A program made the position numbers and the translations under genes. From the UHGV virus genome UHGV-0089399: a stretch of 22,830 nucleotides of DNA; one strand, written 5' to 3'. Every line of letters starts with the position of its first letter. Position 1 is the first letter of the stretch. The stretch comes from a virus. Of this stretch, positions 3,945-8,966 are shown one piece after another. Under the pieces are notes generated by a model. The model saw only the letters and a list, made by a program, of their open reading frames with translations. It was not told the DNA's origin and ran no database searches.

Positions 3945-6551
3945 TTATTTCCTGCAAACTCCAGATGATGTTAATCCATCAAAAATAACCTGCACTCTGG
4001 CAATAACAACATCAACTCCAGAAGTCGTTTCACTTGCATAACCAAGTTTTATTTTAGATACAATATCCTGAGTAAGTTCAGATATTTCAGTTTCTGCAAT
4101 GTTACCAGAGGCCATGTGATTATCGTATGCCATAGAATGAATTCCATTATTGACATCGATTGAACTAGTATGTTTGTGAAAAATAGATGGGTTTACCTGA
4201 AACGAATTTGAACCGATAAGATCAGAAGATACTCCATTCATCACTGCAGTACAGCGTGGAATATTATTATCGGTTATTGTCATATGCAGACGGTTACCAG
4301 TTAACCCCTCACCAAGTGTGACATAATACGCCAATTCTCCACCTGCATATTGTTTCCCCTCAACAATAACAGTAATCCCTCTTAATTTCTGATTAGCTAG
4401 CAAAAACTTATTACTGTCTATATAGCATTTATTTGCGGAACCAAAAACAGCCCCTTCTAAAATATCTGATGAATAGGAATAAATAAGGTCACCAGAAACA
4501 AAGGAAAGAATATCAGATACGTTTCCTTTTTTAGATAAGTTGGGAGAATAGCTATTAACTATTTCATATTGTCCTGTGATAAAATCAAGGTAAACGCCAT
4601 CAGTTTTCATCTCTTTAAAGAAAATGCTATTAAAGCATCCATCAAGAACCGGTGGATATATTCTAGAGCTTGCATAAGCTGTTGGGTGATTCTTATTATT
4701 ACCACTACCAGGCGAATAAACATCTTCGTTAGTCATTGACTTTTTAAGCTTAACAGGAATCATCGGCTGCATATCAATTTTGCAGTTCCCTGAACCACCG
4801 ATGCGAGGATAAAATAAACCACCAAACCTTACAATATTACTACTGAATAGTATTTCGTTATCGTTAAGTGTTATCTCAACGAAGTTTCCAATAAGTTTAA
4901 ATTCAACTGAAAACAAACCAAGTGGAGCAGATAATTTAACAATATTGCGCATAAAAACACCTACAGTCCCTGTTGATGCAGTATAGTGTGTGGTTTCAAA
5001 GGCAGAGCCTGTATATTTCAAGTTAATGAAATTATTATGGTATGAAGACAATTGGAATTGAATCCCAGAACTAAGGATTTCAATATCTACAAATTGAATC
5101 CTTACGGAGTAAGAATATGATAAATCTTCATATTCATAAGGCAATGTAACATCTTTTGAAATAGTTGCCCTCACATAATTACCAGAAACCACATCAACCC
5201 CATCACGTACTGCATTAAAGTAACGATTAAAATCAATAAGCCCAGCGCCAACATACTGCGCATATGAACGAGTCCATCCTGCCATTGCGTTTCGTCCATT
5301 CTGAGCTTCTAAACTGCTAAATTCAGAGTCACTTGTGGTACTTGATGGGAGGATATTTGTACAAAAAACAATTTCAGGCATTGAAGTAATATCATTCAGT
5401 TCAGCCATCAATTTAAAAAAAGTTTTCTGCGGGAAGTTACCAACATCCCAACCATCTCCGTCATTCATGCCAAAAGCAATAATAACAACATCAGGGTTAA
5501 TATCACGAATGTAATCAATCCAGCGTCTGTTCGTGTCTGAATACCATGGGTACTGTGAGTTATAAGAAGTAATTGCTGGTGTATCTTTTCCAAGGTCATA
5601 GTACCTCATTCCACCAATTGCTCTGTTAAATAAAGTAGAACTTGGGAATTTCTCTTGCAAAACTCTCTTAAGATGAGCGGCAAAAATGCTTGATCGATCC
5701 ACTGTGCTTATATTATATGGGGCACTTAAGCTGTCACCAACTAACACTATTTTTGAGTTAGGCCTTGATAATCTCTCAAGTGTTTTAGATGTGACTAAAC
5801 TGCAGGAATTAATGAACTGAGTACTATTTAGCGTCTGTTCAAGTGTATCACCAAATCTGGTACCAACGTATGATGATCCGTTGACACTTGCTAGCTTAAG
5901 GCATAAATCAGCAGTATCTGTAATTGAAAAAATAGGAACAGGACGTCCTAAACTGTCATACCCCTGAATTGAGTTTGCCCTAGAAGATGCTGATGCCATT
6001 TCGCTTACTATCTCAGGGAAGCGGAGTGTTTTAGATATGTTGCTGTTAATAACTCCTTTGATAGATGAGTCTGTATATTTCTTCGTGGAAGCGTCCTGAG
6101 GAAATAATGGATCATCAAGGTTACGAATACGATTGCCGAGTGCATCGTAGTAAGTGGCACTAAATGATGGTTTACGAAGAGCCAGCCGAGCCATGCTTTT
6201 GACTAACTGGATCAGCATCGTTAGCTTATCAAAAGCATCCTCATGCACTTCCGCAAAGAACTTACCCTGATTGCGCAGATCAGTTTCCTGTGTAACCGGT
6301 AGCTCTCGTGATATAGAAATCTTATAGCCATTGGCCAACGCCTTCGACAATATTACATTTCCACCATTGTATCCTCCGGCCCCGGTAACTATATAATCAG
6401 TATCAAGAGTCAGTACGGTGATATTTTCATGAATATCAACAACCTGCACAATCAAATCAGATTTATTGAAAACCCTAAAGGCATACGGAAACGATGTCGT
6501 AACGCCGTTACCGGTGTATTCGTTGTGGTCAACTTCGGTTGAGACCGTCAT
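3945..6551 (-). CDS. Tail fiber/tailspike with T7 gp17-like N-terminal anchor and SGNH/GDSL hydrolase (esterase-like) domain
   Basis: 868 aa. N-terminus (EYTGNGVTTSFPYAFRVF...LTLDTDYIV) resembles the conserved T7 tail-fiber N-terminal domain. Central GDS block (VLVGDSLSAPY), a conserved Gly block and a GxND block (VVIIAFGMNDG) are typical of SGNH hydrolases. GGAG ribosome-binding site upstream. Confidence 0.8.
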   Translation of the reverse strand: MTVSTEVDHNEYTGNGVTTSFPYAFRVFNKSDLIVQVVDIHENITVLTLDTDYIVTGAGGYNGGNVILSKALANGYKISISRELPVTQETDLRNQGKFFAEVHEDAFDKLTMLIQLVKSMARLALRKPSFSATYYDALGNRIRNLDDPLFPQDASTKKYTDSSIKGVINSNISKTLRFPEIVSEMASASSRANSIQGYDSLGRPVPIFSITDTADLCLKLASVNGSSYVGTRFGDTLEQTLNSTQFINSCSLVTSKTLERLSRPNSKIVLVGDSLSAPYNISTVDRSSIFAAHLKRVLQEKFPSSTLFNRAIGGMRYYDLGKDTPAITSYNSQYPWYSDTNRRWIDYIRDINPDVVIIAFGMNDGDGWDVGNFPQKTFFKLMAELNDITSMPEIVFCTNILPSSTTSDSEFSSLEAQNGRNAMAGWTRSYAQYVGAGLIDFNRYFNAVRDGVDVVSGNYVRATISKDVTLPYEYEDLSYSYSVRIQFVDIEILSSGIQFQLSSYHNNFINLKYTGSAFETTHYTASTGTVGVFMRNIVKLSAPLGLFSVEFKLIGNFVEITLNDNEILFSSNIVRFGGLFYPRIGGSGNCKIDMQPMIPVKLKKSMTNEDVYSPGSGNNKNHPTAYASSRIYPPVLDGCFNSIFFKEMKTDGVYLDFITGQYEIVNSYSPNLSKKGNVSDILSFVSGDLIYSYSSDILEGAVFGSANKCYIDSNKFLLANQKLRGITVIVEGKQYAGGELAYYVTLGEGLTGNRLHMTITDNNIPRCTAVMNGVSSDLIGSNSFQVNPSIFHKHTSSIDVNNGIHSMAYDNHMASGNIAETEISELTQDIVSKIKLGYASETTSGVDVVIARVQVIFDGLTSSGVCRK

Positions 6552-6654: not shown

Positions 6655-6671
6655 ATTACCTTTATGGTAAT
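6655..6671. promoter_or_regulatory. Palindromic operator-like site ATTACC-N5-GGTAAT (copy 1 of 3)
   Basis: Perfect 6-bp inverted arms with a 5-nt spacer, in the divergent region between the tailspike and the plus-strand accessory operon. Confidence 0.4.
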
Positions 6672-6709: not shown

Positions 6710-6725
6710 CTGTATAAATATACAG
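6710..6725. promoter_or_regulatory. LexA (SOS) box, CTGT-N8-ACAG
   Basis: CTGTATAAATATACAG is a near-perfect match to the LexA consensus CTGT(AT)4ACAG. Lies about 20 bp upstream of the 6747 start and overlaps the likely promoter (TTGATA upstream). Confidence 0.6.
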
Positions 6726-6746: not shown

Positions 6747-7004
6747 ATGCAGCGGTATCACTATCCACTGGAAGACGGATTTACCGAAAGGATTCACACG
6801 CCGGGAGGCGTCAGGTCACTGGTGGAGGGATCGCACTTGATGAAATTACTCCGGGATCTCGATAAGGATGGATTTAATGTCGATGGCCCACTTGCCGAAC
6901 TGACTGCACTGATTAACTACGTCACCAGCTCACAGATGTCTATGCGGGATCTGCAAACACATCTCGACTATTGTGCCGAACAATTACGAAAACAAACCAG
7001 ATAA
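6747..7004 (+). CDS. Small protein paralogous to the C-terminal domain of the downstream Bro-N protein
   Basis: GGAG ribosome-binding site 8 nt upstream of the ATG. Residues ERIHTPGGVRSLVEGSHLMKLLRDLDKDGFNVDGPLAELTALINYV...MRDLQTHLDY align with RSLIHSPSGVLGLTENSLLMNLLNQLQEDGHDVSGAAAELTTMFCYI...LRDIQTHAEY of the 7319-8011 product. Confidence 0.55.
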   Translation: MQRYHYPLEDGFTERIHTPGGVRSLVEGSHLMKLLRDLDKDGFNVDGPLAELTALINYVTSSQMSMRDLQTHLDYCAEQLRKQTR

Positions 7005-7022
7005 GGTTTGCAATTACCAAGT

Positions 7023-7066
7023 GGAGTGCTTATATTTACCTTTGAGGTAAATTTACATCGCACTCC
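7023..7066. repeat. Compound inverted repeat containing palindrome copy 2 (ATTTACC-N5-GGTAAAT)
   Basis: Outer arms GGAGTGC (7023-7029) / GCACTCC (7060-7066) enclose inner arms ATTTACC (7034-7040) / GGTAAAT (7046-7052). Confidence 0.5.
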
Positions 7067-7143
7067 TCTTGTGCCATAGTAATCGGGCACTGGCAAAATC
7101 CGGTGCCGGGATTGGTCTCCCGGATTACTACAGAGGCACATAT

Positions 7144-7164
7144 GCCGCATAAGCGGTTTTTTTT
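7144..7164 (+). terminator. Weak intrinsic terminator/attenuator-like hairpin with U8 tract
   Basis: Short stem CCGC-ataa-GCGG followed by tttttttt, between the small ORF and the Bro-N gene. The stem is short, so function is uncertain. Confidence 0.35.
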
Positions 7165-7318
7165 ATGTGTAAAGCGCACCTATTCTATGGTGGGCTGTGT
7201 GGGGGCACCGAAAGGTGCGCCGGGTTCCTTTGTAGCCGGTAAGACCAACTCTGCACAGTTCACCACCATCTGATTGGTCTCAGCGGTGGTGATTAACCTA
7301 ACTACAAAGGTGATCGCC

Positions 7319-8011
7319 ATGAATACCAAACCTTCCATCTTTTCCTTTGAGTCATCCTGCCAGATCCGTATGTTCATGATTGACGGAGAACCTTGGTTTG
7401 TCACCAAAGATGTGTGCAATGCTTTGAATATTGATGTTACACAAGCGAGAAAACTTGATAAAAAAGGCTGGAACAAAAAGGGGCTGTATTCAATACAGAC
7501 CCCTGGTGGAATACAAGAACTATCCATCGTTTCAGAATCAGGTCTCTACATCCTTATTCTGCGTTGCAAAGAGGCAATGACTGAGGGAACGAGAGCATTC
7601 AGATTTCTTGAATGGGTTACAGGCGAGGTTCTTCCTCAGATCCGCCGCACCGGAAGTTACATTAAAAACTCGCTACCGCAGGAAGAACGCATAAAGATGG
7701 TTGCCGACCAGGTAGCCAACGCCACGGCGTCAGCAGTAATGCAGGCGATGAAGATAGAGAACAAAACCTACAACGCCCCGCTGAAGCCCGGCTACCGCAG
7801 CCTGATTCATTCCCCGTCTGGTGTTCTCGGCCTGACGGAGAACTCACTGCTGATGAATCTGCTGAACCAGTTACAGGAAGACGGGCACGACGTATCGGGC
7901 GCGGCGGCGGAGCTGACCACCATGTTCTGCTACATCGTCGGTGTGAGCAAATGCCTGCGTGATATCCAGACGCACGCGGAGTACATCAACGACAAAGCAG
8001 GGTTCTTCTGA
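7319..8011 (+). CDS. Bro-N domain protein (phage antirepressor-like)
   Basis: N-terminal region (FSFESSCQIRMFMIDGEPWFVTKDVCNALN...ESGLYILILRCKEAMTEGTRAFRFLEWVTGEVLPQIRRTGSY) matches the Bro-N/KilA-N-type domain pattern. AGGTGA ribosome-binding site upstream of the ATG at 7319; the track ORF begins earlier at a non-ATG codon. Confidence 0.8.
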   Translation: MNTKPSIFSFESSCQIRMFMIDGEPWFVTKDVCNALNIDVTQARKLDKKGWNKKGLYSIQTPGGIQELSIVSESGLYILILRCKEAMTEGTRAFRFLEWVTGEVLPQIRRTGSYIKNSLPQEERIKMVADQVANATASAVMQAMKIENKTYNAPLKPGYRSLIHSPSGVLGLTENSLLMNLLNQLQEDGHDVSGAAAELTTMFCYIVGVSKCLRDIQTHAEYINDKAGFF

Positions 8012-8083: not shown

Positions 8084-8098
8084 TTACCTTAAAGGTAA
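8084..8098. promoter_or_regulatory. Palindromic operator-like site TTACC-N5-GGTAA (copy 3 of 3)
   Basis: TTACC (8084-8088) and GGTAA (8094-8098) with a 5-nt spacer, about 45 bp upstream of the 8141 start codon. Same architecture as the sites at 6655-6671 and 7034-7052. Confidence 0.4.
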
Positions 8099-8140: not shown

Positions 8141-8467
8141 ATGACAAAACTTGGATTCGTGATGAGAGGTCCGGTAAGAAGCGGAACTCATGCAAAGCGT
8201 AGCAAGAGTCGTATTTTTACTGGTAAGGTTGTAGCACGTAAATCAGCTATTGGCTCGTTCAATAGTGAAAATGCGGCATTGCGCCATATTTTTATCAGCA
8301 CAAAGCCAAGAGCATCCGCTGATGTGCATACAATGACTATTCCTATCACAAAGAATATAAAGCGGATAAAAAAGCTCTCATCTGCAGAATCAAAAGAGAT
8401 ATCTTTCCGCCAGCTTAACTCATTAGAAACGCATATGAAGGAAGAGGAATTCGATGTTTTTGAGTGA
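8141..8467 (+). CDS. Hypothetical basic protein (108 aa), first gene of a coupled pair
   Basis: GGAG ribosome-binding site 8 nt upstream. Lys/Arg-rich N-terminus. The 3' end overlaps the next gene by 14 nt. AT-rich relative to flanking DNA. No motif I recognise. Confidence 0.5.
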   Translation: MTKLGFVMRGPVRSGTHAKRSKSRIFTGKVVARKSAIGSFNSENAALRHIFISTKPRASADVHTMTIPITKNIKRIKKLSSAESKEISFRQLNSLETHMKEEEFDVFE

Positions 8468-8966
8468 GTATAGCGGGAAGGTTATACCTACTGGTGAGTT
8501 TAAAACTGATGACTTTCTGATTTCGCTAAAAGATGCTTTTAAACAACACTGGCGTCATGGTCATCATCCTGATCTGGGAAAAGATACTCTTTTTGAAAGA
8601 CCAGACGAAGTATTAGGTTTCCATCTCAGAAAGGTTCATGTCAATATTGGTGAATATGCATCATATTCATACTCATGTACTGAACAGTGTTGGGATGAGT
8701 GGTCATATGGATTGATTGATGAACAAGGAAATTACAGGCCAAAACCAACCAGTAACGCATATCTCATATATGCAGTCAATGAAATAAGAGATGCAGCCTT
8801 ACTAGCTTATTGGGACCCGCCCGCACACACCAAAGCTAACGCAAAAGTTTGGATGGATTCCGTATTGAATTTCACAAAATTATTTCATGAACGAACGAAT
8901 ACAGCTCCACTTAGTAGAAATGTTTATCCGTGGGATTATTCGTACAAATCCAAAAAGCCTGCATAG
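8454..8966 (+). CDS. Hypothetical protein (170 aa), second gene of a coupled pair
   Basis: GAGG ribosome-binding site inside the upstream gene; start overlaps the upstream stop region. Contains a His-rich stretch (WRHGHHPD). No recognisable family. Confidence 0.5.
   Translation: MFLSEYSGKVIPTGEFKTDDFLISLKDAFKQHWRHGHHPDLGKDTLFERPDEVLGFHLRKVHVNIGEYASYSYSCTEQCWDEWSYGLIDEQGNYRPKPTSNAYLIYAVNEIRDAALLAYWDPPAHTKANAKVWMDSVLNFTKLFHERTNTAPLSRNVYPWDYSYKSKKPA

Follow-up and report, generated by a model that had tools for sequence, protein, structure and literature searches.

The gap at positions 7005-7318 of the viral genome UHGV-0089399 (the window, 22,830 nucleotides in full) is very probably the regulatory leader of an antirepressor operon of the phage P1 immI type. 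It carries an IsrK-C4 cassette upstream of a Bro-N gene, which is a known phage RNA control system, real but ordinary, and which most likely holds the downstream antirepressor gene untranslated. A preliminary description of this DNA had given the gap, correctly, a length of 314 bp and had read it as either an attenuator or a small regulatory RNA controlling the antirepressor gene. The second reading agrees with what was found: IsrK and C4 are both matched over their full length, the loops of C4 have their complement in the ribosome-binding region of Bro-N, and this complementarity between loop and target co-varies across 187 related loci. The family membership of the leader, its anatomy and its co-varying complementarities were established in this analysis.

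The upstream half of the cassette is an IsrK RNA (Rfam RF01394, family title IsrK Hfq-binding RNA), the counterpart of the a1b1 leader in the P1 immI operon; it scored 73.7 bits on the covariance model against a gathering threshold of 50 and covered model positions 1-77 of 77. Its parts are as follows, with pairing given for 113 relatives.
7087-7164, + strand: IsrK small RNA (Rfam match 7087-7163)
7087-7093/7100-7106: IsrK helix 1, 91.7% paired, six of seven pairs changed on both sides
7107-7111/7118-7122: IsrK helix 2, 93.2% paired
7112-7118, + strand: a1, TTGGTCT, a copy of a2 in the loop of IsrK helix 2 and the exact 7-nt complement of C4 a'
7128-7136, + strand: b1, CTACAGAGG, a copy of b2 in the single-stranded linker of IsrK
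7144-7148/7153-7157 with T8 at 7157-7164: terminator-like site of IsrK, GCCGC-ATAA-GCGGT and T8 (7144-7164), the "short stem plus U8" of the preliminary description

The element is complete (two 5' hairpins, then a terminator ending in a U-tail), and it pairs with the downstream C4 region through a1:a' (duplex of -9.2 kcal/mol) and b1:b' (9 bp including one G-U, -14.7 kcal/mol). A helix flanking the terminator and extending its stem gave a moderately positive result in an alignment-free test (85% vs 38%); no conserved helix that would act as an antiterminator against this stem was found, the flanks extending the stem instead. The c4-a1b1 model (Rfam RF03163) remained below its gathering threshold at 7074-7126 (37.8 vs 46.7 bits, E = 7.7e-8), and this region is better described by the IsrK model. 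As the P1 leader scores on both models (51 bits on c4-a1b1 and 35 on IsrK, the latter match being full length), the two describe one homologous element. A pairing between the 5' end of IsrK and the region of the Bro-N start, which appears in the MFE structure of the full leader, was rejected, since at least 6 bp of it were found in 1.5% of loci vs 10.7% of controls.

The downstream half is a C4 antisense RNA, followed by its two target sites and by the gene that it would regulate (pairing again in 113 relatives).
7183-7270, + strand: C4 antisense RNA, Rfam RF01695, 78.6 bits against a gathering threshold of 45, model positions 1-87 of 87
7188-7204/7249-7265: C4 closing stem, 99% paired
7205-7209/7214-7218: C4 hairpin 1, 95.6% paired, four of five pairs changed on both sides; this is the local hairpin GCACC-GAAA-GGTGC (7205-7218) of the preliminary description
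7219-7223/7236-7240: C4 hairpin 2, 98.2% paired
7227-7235, + strand: b', CCTTTGTAG, one of the two antisense elements, located in the hairpin 2 loop
7242-7248, + strand: a', AGACCAA, the other antisense element, located in the single-stranded bulge that separates hairpin 2 from the 3' strand of the closing stem
7274-7280, + strand: a2, TTGGTCT, first C4 target site in the mRNA
7302-7310, + strand: b2, CTACAAAGG, second C4 target site, overlapping the Bro-N Shine-Dalgarno sequence AAGGTGA (7307-7313)
7319-8011, + strand: Bro-N-domain antirepressor, the regulated gene (Pfam Bro-N, E = 1.6e-13; ATG at 7319)

Assignment to the C4 family is indicated by the score, by a fold with covariation, by the complementarity of a'/b' to a2/b2 (duplexes of -9.2 kcal/mol for a'/a2 and -12.6 kcal/mol for b'/b2) and by the position in an antirepressor leader. 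The MFE structure of 7183-7270 is the Rfam structure (z = -4.5). Going by the ends annotated for its P1 homologue, with which the invariant AU|GGUGGG and the 3' ...CCACC agree, the mature RNA would comprise the 79 nt from G7189 to C7267. Both Rfam matches lie on the + strand and no minus-strand promoter-like site was found in 7005-7318, which does not fit an antisense RNA of the sar type.

The Bro-N gene starts 49 nt downstream of C4, and in 104 diverse loci the gene after C4 encodes an ORF6N, Bro-N, Rha, AntA or KilA-N protein. The Bro-N protein is 80% identical to ORF4 of phage vB_EcoP_ZX5, the overexpression of which lowered the prophage titre about 1000-fold (PMC9782041). Over its C-terminal 74 residues it is a paralogue of the small Ant encoded next to the gap at 6747-7004 (43% identity, E = 8e-17). 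We take the small Ant gene to be LexA-controlled, as SPC32H ant is; the prophage appears to have two antirepressors with a common C-terminal domain, one behind a LexA box and one behind the C4 and IsrK RNAs. Two differently controlled antirepressors are a plausible way to join SOS-dependent and SOS-independent induction signals, although the principle is not new.

The three-way complementarity was examined by an alignment-free k-mer test in 187 distinct related loci, collected by a pattern that keeps the C4 closing-stem ends constant, with mismatched loci as controls. Complementarity is kept while the sequences change, the loci containing 16 different a' words and about 57 b' words. The a2 site was found in 182 of the 187 loci vs 1 of 2494 mismatched controls (0.04%), and a1 in 176 vs 8 of 2503 (0.3%); b2 of at least 7 nt was present in 149 loci vs 4.4% of controls, and b1 of that length in 114 vs 5.1%. 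Scored by column, a'/a2 is 97-99% paired, with five of five variable pairs changed on both sides, and a1/a' is 97.4% paired, with seven of seven pairs so changed; none of 500 shuffles matched either value. Column-wise scoring failed for b'/b2 and b1/b' (only 42-67% paired) because of loop indels, and the support for these two pairings is therefore that of the alignment-free test.

For this leader we infer the ends and the processing of the transcripts, as well as repression by C4 and the direction in which IsrK acts. Transcription would begin at about 7087 from a promoter at 7052-7080, and a second, operator-overlapped promoter may begin at about 7043. Most transcripts would stop at the intrinsic terminator at 7144-7164, yielding the 77-nt IsrK RNA, while those that read through would contain C4, which would be released as a separate RNA about 79 nt long (7189-7267). 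P1 C4 is processed by RNase P, and C4 is probably excised from its precursor here by the same enzyme. C4 would then serve as an antisense repressor of its own operon mRNA, with the bulge a' on a2 and the hairpin-2 loop b' on b2, and since b2 overlaps the Shine-Dalgarno sequence this pairing would block ribosome start on the Bro-N gene. In the MFE structure of the full, unprocessed leader a'b' pairs with a1b1 and a2/b2 are left free, so that repression would need processed or excess C4. Having the same target sequences in a1 and b1, IsrK would be able to occupy a'b' in cis (on the unprocessed transcript) or in trans and so counteract C4, as genetics showed for Gifsy-1 IsrK. Disruption of a1:a' in cis increased translation in Gifsy-1 (PMC4825925), which a simple decoy does not predict, and the role of IsrK would therefore be more than titration.

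An alternative of the Gifsy-1 type, in which Bro-N expression depends on translation of a small ORF in C4 (the counterpart of orf45) and IsrK converts an inactive leader structure (A) into an active one (B) instead of lifting a C4 block of the Bro-N ribosome-binding site, was judged unlikely. The cis a1b1:a'b' pairing of the full-leader MFE is indeed structure A of PMC4825925, and mutations in the start or stop of orf45 lowered activation in Gifsy-1 (PMC4825925). The ORF concerned is the following.
7187 (ATG) to 7273 (TGA): counterpart of orf45, 28 codons, starting inside C4
It ends, however, 46 nt before the Bro-N ATG, which makes coupling by overlap impossible, and among the 113 relatives the ORF from this ATG is 3 to 443 codons long, so that no peptide is conserved. 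The ATG at 7187 itself belongs to the invariant stem and processing site of C4, and b2 directly overlaps the Bro-N Shine-Dalgarno sequence.

Control could also be transcriptional rather than translational: P1 C4 also lowers ant transcription, through Rho polarity. In P4 immunity the CI RNA acts by premature termination, and an equivalent mechanism, with C4 pairing to a1b1/a2b2 on nascent transcripts, would suit the location of a1 and b1 directly upstream of an intrinsic terminator; the Gifsy-1 authors themselves liken IsrK to P4 seqA and STnc1160 to CI (PMC4825925). It is nevertheless very unlikely here, as b2 lies on the Shine-Dalgarno sequence and its 3' end falls 9-13 nt 5' of the start codon in most of the 187 loci, which a translational block predicts, and as constitutive STnc1160 left the IsrK effect undiminished in Gifsy-1 (PMC4825925).

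Every string that the preliminary description quoted is present at its coordinates, and the gap is rich in stems: the leader at 7087-7325 folds beyond chance (-99.7 kcal/mol, z = -4.9), none of 200 shuffles folding as well, and the z-score of the hairpin at 7023-7066 is -5.1. Besides the terminator and C4 hairpin 1, it had named the following.
7023-7066: compound hairpin GGAGTGC...GCACTCC, with inner TTTACC/GGTAAA
7106-7123: stem CCGGGA-TTGGTC-TCCCGG
7174-7181/7213-7220: 8-bp long-range pair, GCGCACCT with AGGTGCGC

AATCCGG (7097-7103) and CCGGATT (7120-7126), thought to be nested with CCGGGA/TCCCGG, in fact exclude that stem, because both need CCGG at 7120-7123. RNAfold favours the AATCCGG/CCGGATT helix for this single sequence; it was rejected as poorly paired in relatives (57-73% of cells, vs 92-93% for the Rfam IsrK helices). 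The folding and covariance comparison with relatives that had been proposed thus upheld the Rfam helices and the a/b complementarities but neither this helix nor the 8-bp pair, which is exact here and was likewise rejected as not conserved. Mutually exclusive hairpins do exist and are conserved, although they differ from those named: a'b' pairs with a1b1 or a2b2, and the C4 3' arm with its own 5' arm or with 7285-7292. A transcription attenuator, in which 7174-7181/7213-7220 against the local hairpin 7205-7218 decides termination before Bro-N, is extremely unlikely in spite of the exact 8-bp complement, the predicted intrinsic terminator in the leader at 7144-7164 and an 8-fold rise of a transcriptional fusion with Gifsy-1 IsrK in trans (PMC4825925), since the U-tract at 7157-7164, said to follow the alternative pairings, lies upstream of them (7174-7220), so that the geometry is not that of a terminator and antiterminator, the 8-bp pair is absent from the leader MFE and poorly kept in relatives (52.6% of cells paired in 113, one pair kept in 7 of 111), the local hairpin co-varies within the C4 fold, and the terminator is flanked by an extending helix with no conserved antiterminator found. 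No tRNA or tmRNA was found in the gap, and the ORFs at 7103-7273 (+ strand) and at 6968-7150, 7036-7179 and 7180-7527 (all - strand) are mechanical only.

Upstream of IsrK, the gap contains two predicted promoters and a palindrome.
7008-7036, + strand: sigma-70-like promoter P2, -35 TTGCAA (7008-7013), 17-nt spacer, -10 TATATT (7031-7036), 9/12 match
7036-7050, no strand: operator-like palindrome TTACC-TTTGA-GGTAA, which forms the core of the 7023-7066 hairpin; its centre is about 44 bp upstream of the IsrK start
7052-7080, + strand: IsrK promoter, -35 TTTACA (7052-7057), 17-nt spacer, extended -10 TG-C-CATAGT (7073-7080)

The IsrK promoter places the putative transcription start at G7087. In all 14 phage copies inspected the predicted promoter ends about 7 nt upstream of the IsrK 5' end, and in P1 the annotated P1c4 -10 ends 7 nt 5' of the IsrK-model match. 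The -10 of P2 ends on the first base of the palindrome, so that its predicted start (about 7043) is inside it, a position analogous to that of P2c4/Oc4 of phage P1. A promoter of at least 8/12 whose -10 stops precisely at the first T of TTACC was found in 42 of 48 distinct related upstream sequences, the intervening sequence differing. Further perfect copies of TTACC-N5-GGTAA are located at 6656-6670 and 8084-8098 (four matches at no more than one mismatch, vs 0.38 expected), and in 54 distinct relatives the arms are invariant while the 5-nt spacer is free. Phage phiV10 has 14 matches vs 0.6 expected, two of which lie in the interval that separates the HTH repressor gene from the divergent gene. 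Judged by this distribution, the palindrome most likely serves as a binding site for a presumed regulator, the prophage repressor (a homologue of phiV10 p40) or Cro. The outer arms of 7023-7066, GGAGTGC/GCACTCC, differ in sequence but are complementary in some lineages and are absent in others; they may be a terminator of the upstream ant gene or an extended palindromic operator.

A further conserved hairpin involves the 3' arm of C4.
7260-7292, + strand: alternative hairpin, C4 3' arm TCACCACC (7260-7267) paired with GGTGGTGA (7285-7292)
It puts a2 in a 17-nt loop and excludes the outer part of the C4 closing stem (-17.1 kcal/mol, z = -3.9; 95.5% paired in relatives). In 87% of 172 distinct loci at least seven of its eight pairs are present, and where the arm differs so does its partner (TCGCCACC with GGTGGCGA; CCGCCACC with ...GG). 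P1 also has this a2-presenting hairpin (CCTGCCACC / GGTAGCAGG). No discussion of the conserved hairpin was found in the literature searched. One possible, still tentative, interpretation is that the leader is a multi-state RNA switch tied to the main immunity circuit, in which the C4 loops are held by IsrK a1b1 (in cis or trans) or by a2b2, the a2 hairpin competes with the tRNA-like closing stem on which RNase P processing of C4 depends, and the operator in the promoter region, found as well between the prophage repressor gene and its divergent neighbour, lets the repressor set the amounts of C4 and IsrK. If so, the prophage, with a LexA-controlled small Ant nearby, would gain a second, SOS-independent induction route through the Bro-N::Ant fusion protein, which has the same repressor-binding domain.

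The cassette is present in 540 of 5426 complete E. coli genomes (about 10%) and in many Stx-converting phages. The gap is unannotated in RefSeq, and in several GenBank records spurious protein genes have been placed over C4; recognition of the cassette sets those records right and marks the Bro-N gene as an antirepressor under RNA control.

Several phage systems invite comparison with this leader. In P22 immI (arc-ant, sar), also a secondary immunity region, antirepressor translation is limited by a small RNA; sar is made from the strand opposite ant and runs across the ant ribosome-binding site, whereas the regulator here is on the same strand and would act through short loop complementarities. 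In the immunity of the phage-plasmid P4 (CI RNA, seqA, seqC) a processed leader sRNA likewise pairs with repeated sites up- and downstream (via PMC4825925); there the outcome is premature transcription termination of replication genes, not a block of an antirepressor ribosome-binding site. The APSE phages of Hamiltonella carry isrK and c4, with a' and b' matching the sequence upstream of a BRO gene (PMC7313666; GenBank LR794151). This is the same three-part isrK, c4 and BRO cassette, with the a' and b' regions already annotated; it differs in its Sendosyvirus lineage and in its a'/b' words (GTCTCAA / CCTTGTTAG), and a1/b1 within isrK were not remarked on by the authors (PMC7313666).

The Gifsy-1 locus IsrK-orf45 (STnc1160)-anrP (RF01394) likewise consists of IsrK, a C4-type stable RNA and an antirepressor gene. 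Gifsy-1 IsrK has its own promoter and a leaky terminator, and when supplied in trans it raised anrP translation 139-fold (PMC4825925). Pairing of a1 with a' was verified there by the compensatory mutations G28A/C162U and G31A/C159U (PMC4825925), and these published mutants map onto a1/a'. The Gifsy-1 locus was explained by a 45-codon ORF coupled to anrP, whereas the 28-codon ORF here is not adjacent to the Bro-N start; the antQ or isrJ context of Gifsy-1 is absent within the window.

The elements of this leader follow one another as they do in the P1/P7 immI operon (C4 RF01695; a1/b1 element RF03163), and at the same spacing: operator, promoter(s), a1 in a hairpin loop, b1, terminator-like hairpin, C4, a2, b2 on the ribosome-binding site, and antirepressor operon. 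The curated P1 record annotates the Oc4 operator, the promoters, a1, b1, C4, a2 and b2, and then icd. In both leaders a1 begins 25 nt after the start and b2 ends 8-10 nt before the start codon, and the C4 RNAs have the same fold, the same G at the mature 5' end after AU, and an a2-presenting hairpin. The two differ in the a'/b' words (CUGUCAA / CACUAAC in P1, AGACCAA / CCUUUGUAG here), in the operator (an asymmetric C1 site in P1, a TTACC-N5-GGTAA palindrome here), and in the host element, a plasmid prophage for P1 and an epsilon15/phiV10-like podophage prophage here. Finally, the first regulated gene of P1 is icd, coupled to ant1/ant2, whereas here b2 lies directly on the Bro-N Shine-Dalgarno sequence.

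A search of the whole window with Rfam, at gathering thresholds, returned only two matches, both full length, on the + strand and within the gap between the small ORF at 6747-7004 and the Bro-N gene: IsrK and the C4 antisense RNA. With 37.8 bits the c4-a1b1 model stayed short of its gathering score, 46.7, and no tRNA was found in the window by ARAGORN. The elements of the two RNAs are listed below; a' and b' denote the antisense elements of C4, a2 and b2 their downstream target sites, and a1 and b1 the copies of both targets that are also present in IsrK.

7087-7163, + strand: IsrK (RF01394), 73.7 bits against a gathering score of 50
7112-7118, + strand: a1, TTGGTCT, in the loop of IsrK helix 2
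7128-7136, + strand: b1, CTACAGAGG, in IsrK; 9 bp with b', one of them G-U
7183-7270, + strand: C4 antisense RNA (RF01695), 78.6 bits against a gathering score of 45
7227-7235, + strand: b', CCTTTGTAG, in the loop of C4 hairpin 2; exact complement of b2
7242-7248, + strand: a', AGACCAA, in the bulge 3' of C4 hairpin 2; complementary to a2
7274-7280, + strand: a2, TTGGTCT, complement of a'
7302-7310, + strand: b2, CTACAAAGG, overlapping the Shine-Dalgarno sequence AAGGTGA (7307-7313) of the Bro-N gene, whose ATG is at 7319

The gap is 314 bp long (7005-7318), as the preliminary description gave, and every string quoted there was found at its position. Several of the stems it recorded are parts of the two RNAs: IsrK contributes helix 2 (the hairpin at 7106-7123) and its terminator (the "short stem plus U8"), and C4 contributes hairpin 1 (GCACC-GAAA-GGTGC). 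The stem-richness that it had remarked on is above chance, as the fold of the leader (7087-7325) has an energy of -99.7 kcal/mol (z = -4.9), which none of 200 shuffles equalled; z is -4.5 for the C4 stretch (7183-7270) and -5.1 for the hairpin at 7023-7066. Duplex energies were -12.6 kcal/mol for b'/b2, -14.7 for b'/b1, and -9.2 for both a'/a2 and a'/a1. Judged by homology to the annotated ends of P1 C4 (AU|GGUGGG... ...CCACC), mature C4 would run from G7189 to C7267.

The window comes from an E. coli prophage of the phiV10/epsilon15 type (Uetakevirus). Across the leader stretch many E. coli chromosomes are identical to it, a match being present in 540 of 5426 complete genomes, and the phages phiV10, vB_EcoP_ZX5 and Tyrion are 82-92% identical. 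The RefSeq E. coli records carry no annotation in the gap. In several GenBank phage records, IsrK or C4 is directly overlaid by short genes annotated as "hypothetical" or "ash family" proteins (1702-1815 in ZX5, locus L373, an "ash family protein"; 1109-1306, - strand, in L004; 913-1199 in L007; 1020-1145 in L005; 1005-1097 in L012), and these are probably mis-annotated RNA genes. Elsewhere in the window, the tailspike gene (3945-6551, - strand) encodes 868 residues with an epsilon15/phiV10-type N-terminus; its RefSeq annotation as an SGNH/GDSL hydrolase family protein suggests a receptor-destroying domain of the O-antigen deacetylase type.

Twelve phage loci from GenBank (phiV10, APSE-7, two Klebsiella phages, and Moraxella, Yersinia, Stx-type, Enterobacter, Salmonella and Actinobacillus phages) all carry IsrK, followed after 18-27 nt by C4 and, beyond it, by a gene of antirepressor type. 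Another 240 loci came from two pattern scans of IMG/VR; the 187 distinct IsrK-C4-downstream regions that resulted were tested for complementarity without alignment, with mismatched loci as controls. Helix pairs were counted in a 113-sequence alignment.

Complementarity (187 loci) and covariation (113-sequence alignment) of the IsrK-C4 elements
a2, perfect complement of a' of at least 7 nt: 182/187 loci; mismatched control 1/2494
a1, perfect complement of a' of at least 7 nt: 176/187 loci; mismatched control 8/2503
b2, complement of b' of at least 7 nt: 149/187 loci; mismatched control 4.4%
b1, complement of b' of at least 7 nt: 114/187 loci; mismatched control 5.1%
IsrK helix 1: 91.7% of cells paired; 6/7 pairs changed on both sides
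IsrK helix 2: 93.2% of cells paired; 3/5 pairs changed on both sides
C4 closing stem, the ends of which are fixed by the scan patterns: 99% of cells paired; 5/17 pairs changed on both sides
C4 hairpin 1: 95.6% of cells paired; 4/5 pairs changed on both sides
C4 hairpin 2: 98.2% of cells paired; 3/5 pairs changed on both sides
a'/a2: 97-99% of cells paired; all five variable pairs changed on both sides
a1/a': 97.4% of cells paired; 7/7 pairs changed on both sides

None of 500 shuffles matched the observed covariation score or percentage of cells paired, and slid-partner controls went down to 36-53% paired. The 187 loci contain 16 a' words and about 57 b' words, and in most of them 9-13 nt separate the 3' end of b2 from the start codon. 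In 104 diverse loci, the first gene past C4 had an ORF6N (32), Bro-N (27), Rha (25), AntA (4) or KilA-N (1) domain. Some phages carry two or three IsrK-C4-gene modules in tandem (241-429 and 897-1085 in L013; three C4 copies in L151; two each in L187, L203, L289, L308, L329 and L330), and their a'/b' words differ in at least L013, L151 and L187; this looks like the stacking of mutually orthogonal copies of one RNA control unit.

The mutually exclusive pairings proposed in the preliminary description have conserved counterparts, formed by other pairs than those it named. The a'b' elements have two alternative partners, a1b1 or a2b2. In the minimum free energy (MFE) fold of the unprocessed leader, a1:a' and b1:b' are paired at all positions, which corresponds to "structure A", the inactive leader fold described for Gifsy-1, a Salmonella prophage with IsrK, orf45 (STnc1160) and anrP. 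The C4 3' arm TCACCACC (7260-7267) likewise pairs with either the C4 5' arm or GGTGGTGA (7285-7292). In the second case this 3' strand of the closing stem and the downstream segment form a hairpin (7260-7292; -17.1 kcal/mol, z = -3.9) that excludes the outer C4 stem and holds a2 in a 17-nt loop. At least 7 of the 8 pairs are kept in 87% of 172 distinct loci (after a third scan), arm and partner co-vary (TCGCCACC with GGTGGCGA; CCGCCACC with ...GG), and the a2-presenting hairpin is also found in P1 (CCTGCCACC / GGTAGCAGG).

As for the named pairs, the 8-bp pair 7174-7181/7213-7220 is unconserved, with 52.6% of cells paired and one pair standard in 7 of 111 sequences. AATCCGG (7097-7103)/CCGGATT (7120-7126), for which 57-73% of cells are paired among relatives, is not nested with CCGGGA/TCCCGG; CCGG at 7120-7123 is common to both, and the two are mutually exclusive. 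The whole-leader MFE uses neither the 8-bp pair nor AATCCGG/CCGGATT, and both are most simply chance features of this single lineage. The specific model of an attenuator, with a U-tract after the alternative pairings, was wrong: the U-tract (7157-7164) lies upstream of the proposed competing pairings (7174-7220). The instinct that a small RNA controls the antirepressor gene was right. At the terminator itself, at least six contiguous pairs between the flanks 7136-7141 and 7165-7170 occur in 85% of loci vs 38% of controls, giving moderate support to a conserved helix that would, in read-through transcripts, lengthen the terminator hairpin over the U-tract. The flanks read GCACAT and ATGTGT here, and most relatives have complementary flanks of a different sequence (CGACAA/TTGTCG, CGATATG/CATATCG).

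The best-supported reading of the mechanism, judged from sequence, is the P1 paradigm. C4 would be cut out of read-through transcripts, and its a' and b' would pair with a2 and b2, blocking ribosome binding on the Bro-N antirepressor mRNA; IsrK, carrying a1b1, would compete for the a'b' loops of C4. In Gifsy-1, translation of anrP rose 139-fold with IsrK in trans, and the sites of the compensatory pairs G28A/C162U and G31A/C159U reported there fall on a1 (positions 26-32) and a' (PMC4825925). Basal translation also rose when a1:a' was broken in cis (PMC4825925), and since a pure decoy model fails to predict this rise, the cis a1:a' pairing has an extra role. The "orf45" coupling model of Gifsy-1 is unlikely to apply here: the counterpart ORF (7187-7273) ends 46 nt upstream of the Bro-N ATG and has anything from 3 to 443 codons in relatives, and the orf45 peptide sequence is unconserved according to a review citing the Gifsy-1 study (PMC12197685).

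The promoter region (7005-7086) contains two further elements:

7036-7050: palindrome TTACC-TTTGA-GGTAA, core of the "compound hairpin", abutting the -35 of the IsrK promoter
7008-7013 (-35) and 7031-7036 (-10), + strand: second promoter-like element, its last base coinciding with the first of the palindrome

Further perfect copies of the palindrome lie at 6656-6670 and 8084-8098, each 5' of a + strand gene, and at one mismatch or fewer the window holds four matches vs 0.38 expected. The arms never vary among 54 distinct relatives and the 5 nt between them are unconstrained, a pattern that marks a protein-binding site and not an RNA stem; the outer arms GGAGTGC/GCACTCC are complementary in some lineages only. 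The complete phiV10 genome has TTACC-N5-GGTAA 14 times vs 0.6 expected, with two copies in the interval that separates the HTH repressor gene p40 from the divergent p41 (a repressor/cro-like intergenic region) and others before early, lysis and integrase genes. We infer that the prophage repressor or Cro likely uses the motif as its operator. The place of the second promoter-like element, ending on the palindrome, is taken in 42 of 48 distinct relatives by a promoter with a score of 8/12 or more, although the intervening sequence differs. The copy at 8084-8098, the third, lies upstream of two overlapping ORFs (8141-8467 and 8454-8966), which may be a toxin-antitoxin moron; the latter is a YafO-family type II toxin in RefSeq, and scores 19.7 bits with Pfam YafO_toxin, below the cut-off of 25.

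The Bro-N protein (7319-8011; Pfam Bro-N, E = 1.6e-13) shares 80% identity with ORF4 of phage vB_EcoP_ZX5, which has the same IsrK-C4 pair upstream of it and whose overexpression took the prophage titre from 10^9 to 10^6 (PMC9782041). The small ORF shares 87% identity with the Ant annotated in Salmonella phage SPC32H. It is preceded, 21 nt 5', by a LexA-box-like CTGT-N8-ACAG site, CTGTATAAATATACAG (6710-6725), which has its equivalent in the same place in SPC32H (CTGTATGTTTATACAG), and is probably an SOS-controlled antirepressor. Along its entire length it shares 43% identity (E = 8e-17) with the Bro-N protein's C-terminal 74 residues; this paralogy makes the regulated gene a Bro-N::Ant-like fusion. 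The prophage thus seems to have two antirepressors sharing a domain, one probably SOS-controlled and one RNA-controlled. The IsrK-C4-Bro-N cassette is absent from SPC32H.

The IsrK-C4 cassette is real and already known, both RNAs being in curated families. Its mechanism was worked out earlier in P1/P7 and Gifsy-1 (PMC4825925), and the combination of isrK, c4 and Bro-N, in which a'/b' match the region upstream of Bro-N, has been published for APSE phages (PMC7313666) and is annotated in GenBank LR794151. Three minor points, drawn from sequence comparison, may be new: the a2-presenting hairpin with its covariation, the putative operator wiring of the promoter region, and the pairing of Ant with a Bro-N::Ant fusion.

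The curated P1 record gives the order operator Oc4, promoters P2c4 and P1c4, a1, b1, C4 (77 nt), a2, b2 and icd-ant, a series that the window parallels. The original P1 papers reportedly describe a C4 of 77 nt and Rho polarity. C4 of P1 is stated in the literature to repress ant synthesis and to be a substrate of RNase P. With Rfam, P1 yields C4 at 68.8 bits and c4-a1b1 at 51 bits; the IsrK model matches its leader at full length, with 35 bits, short of the gathering score of 50, starting 7 nt past the -10 of P1c4, and the a1b1 leader of P1 is therefore a homologue of IsrK. In P1 and the window alike, a1 starts 25 nt past the transcription start (a predicted one in the window), a2 follows within a few nucleotides of C4, and 8-10 nt separate the end of b2 from the start codon. 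The operator-overlapped P2c4 and the P1c4 of P1 are mirrored by the two promoter-like elements of the window.
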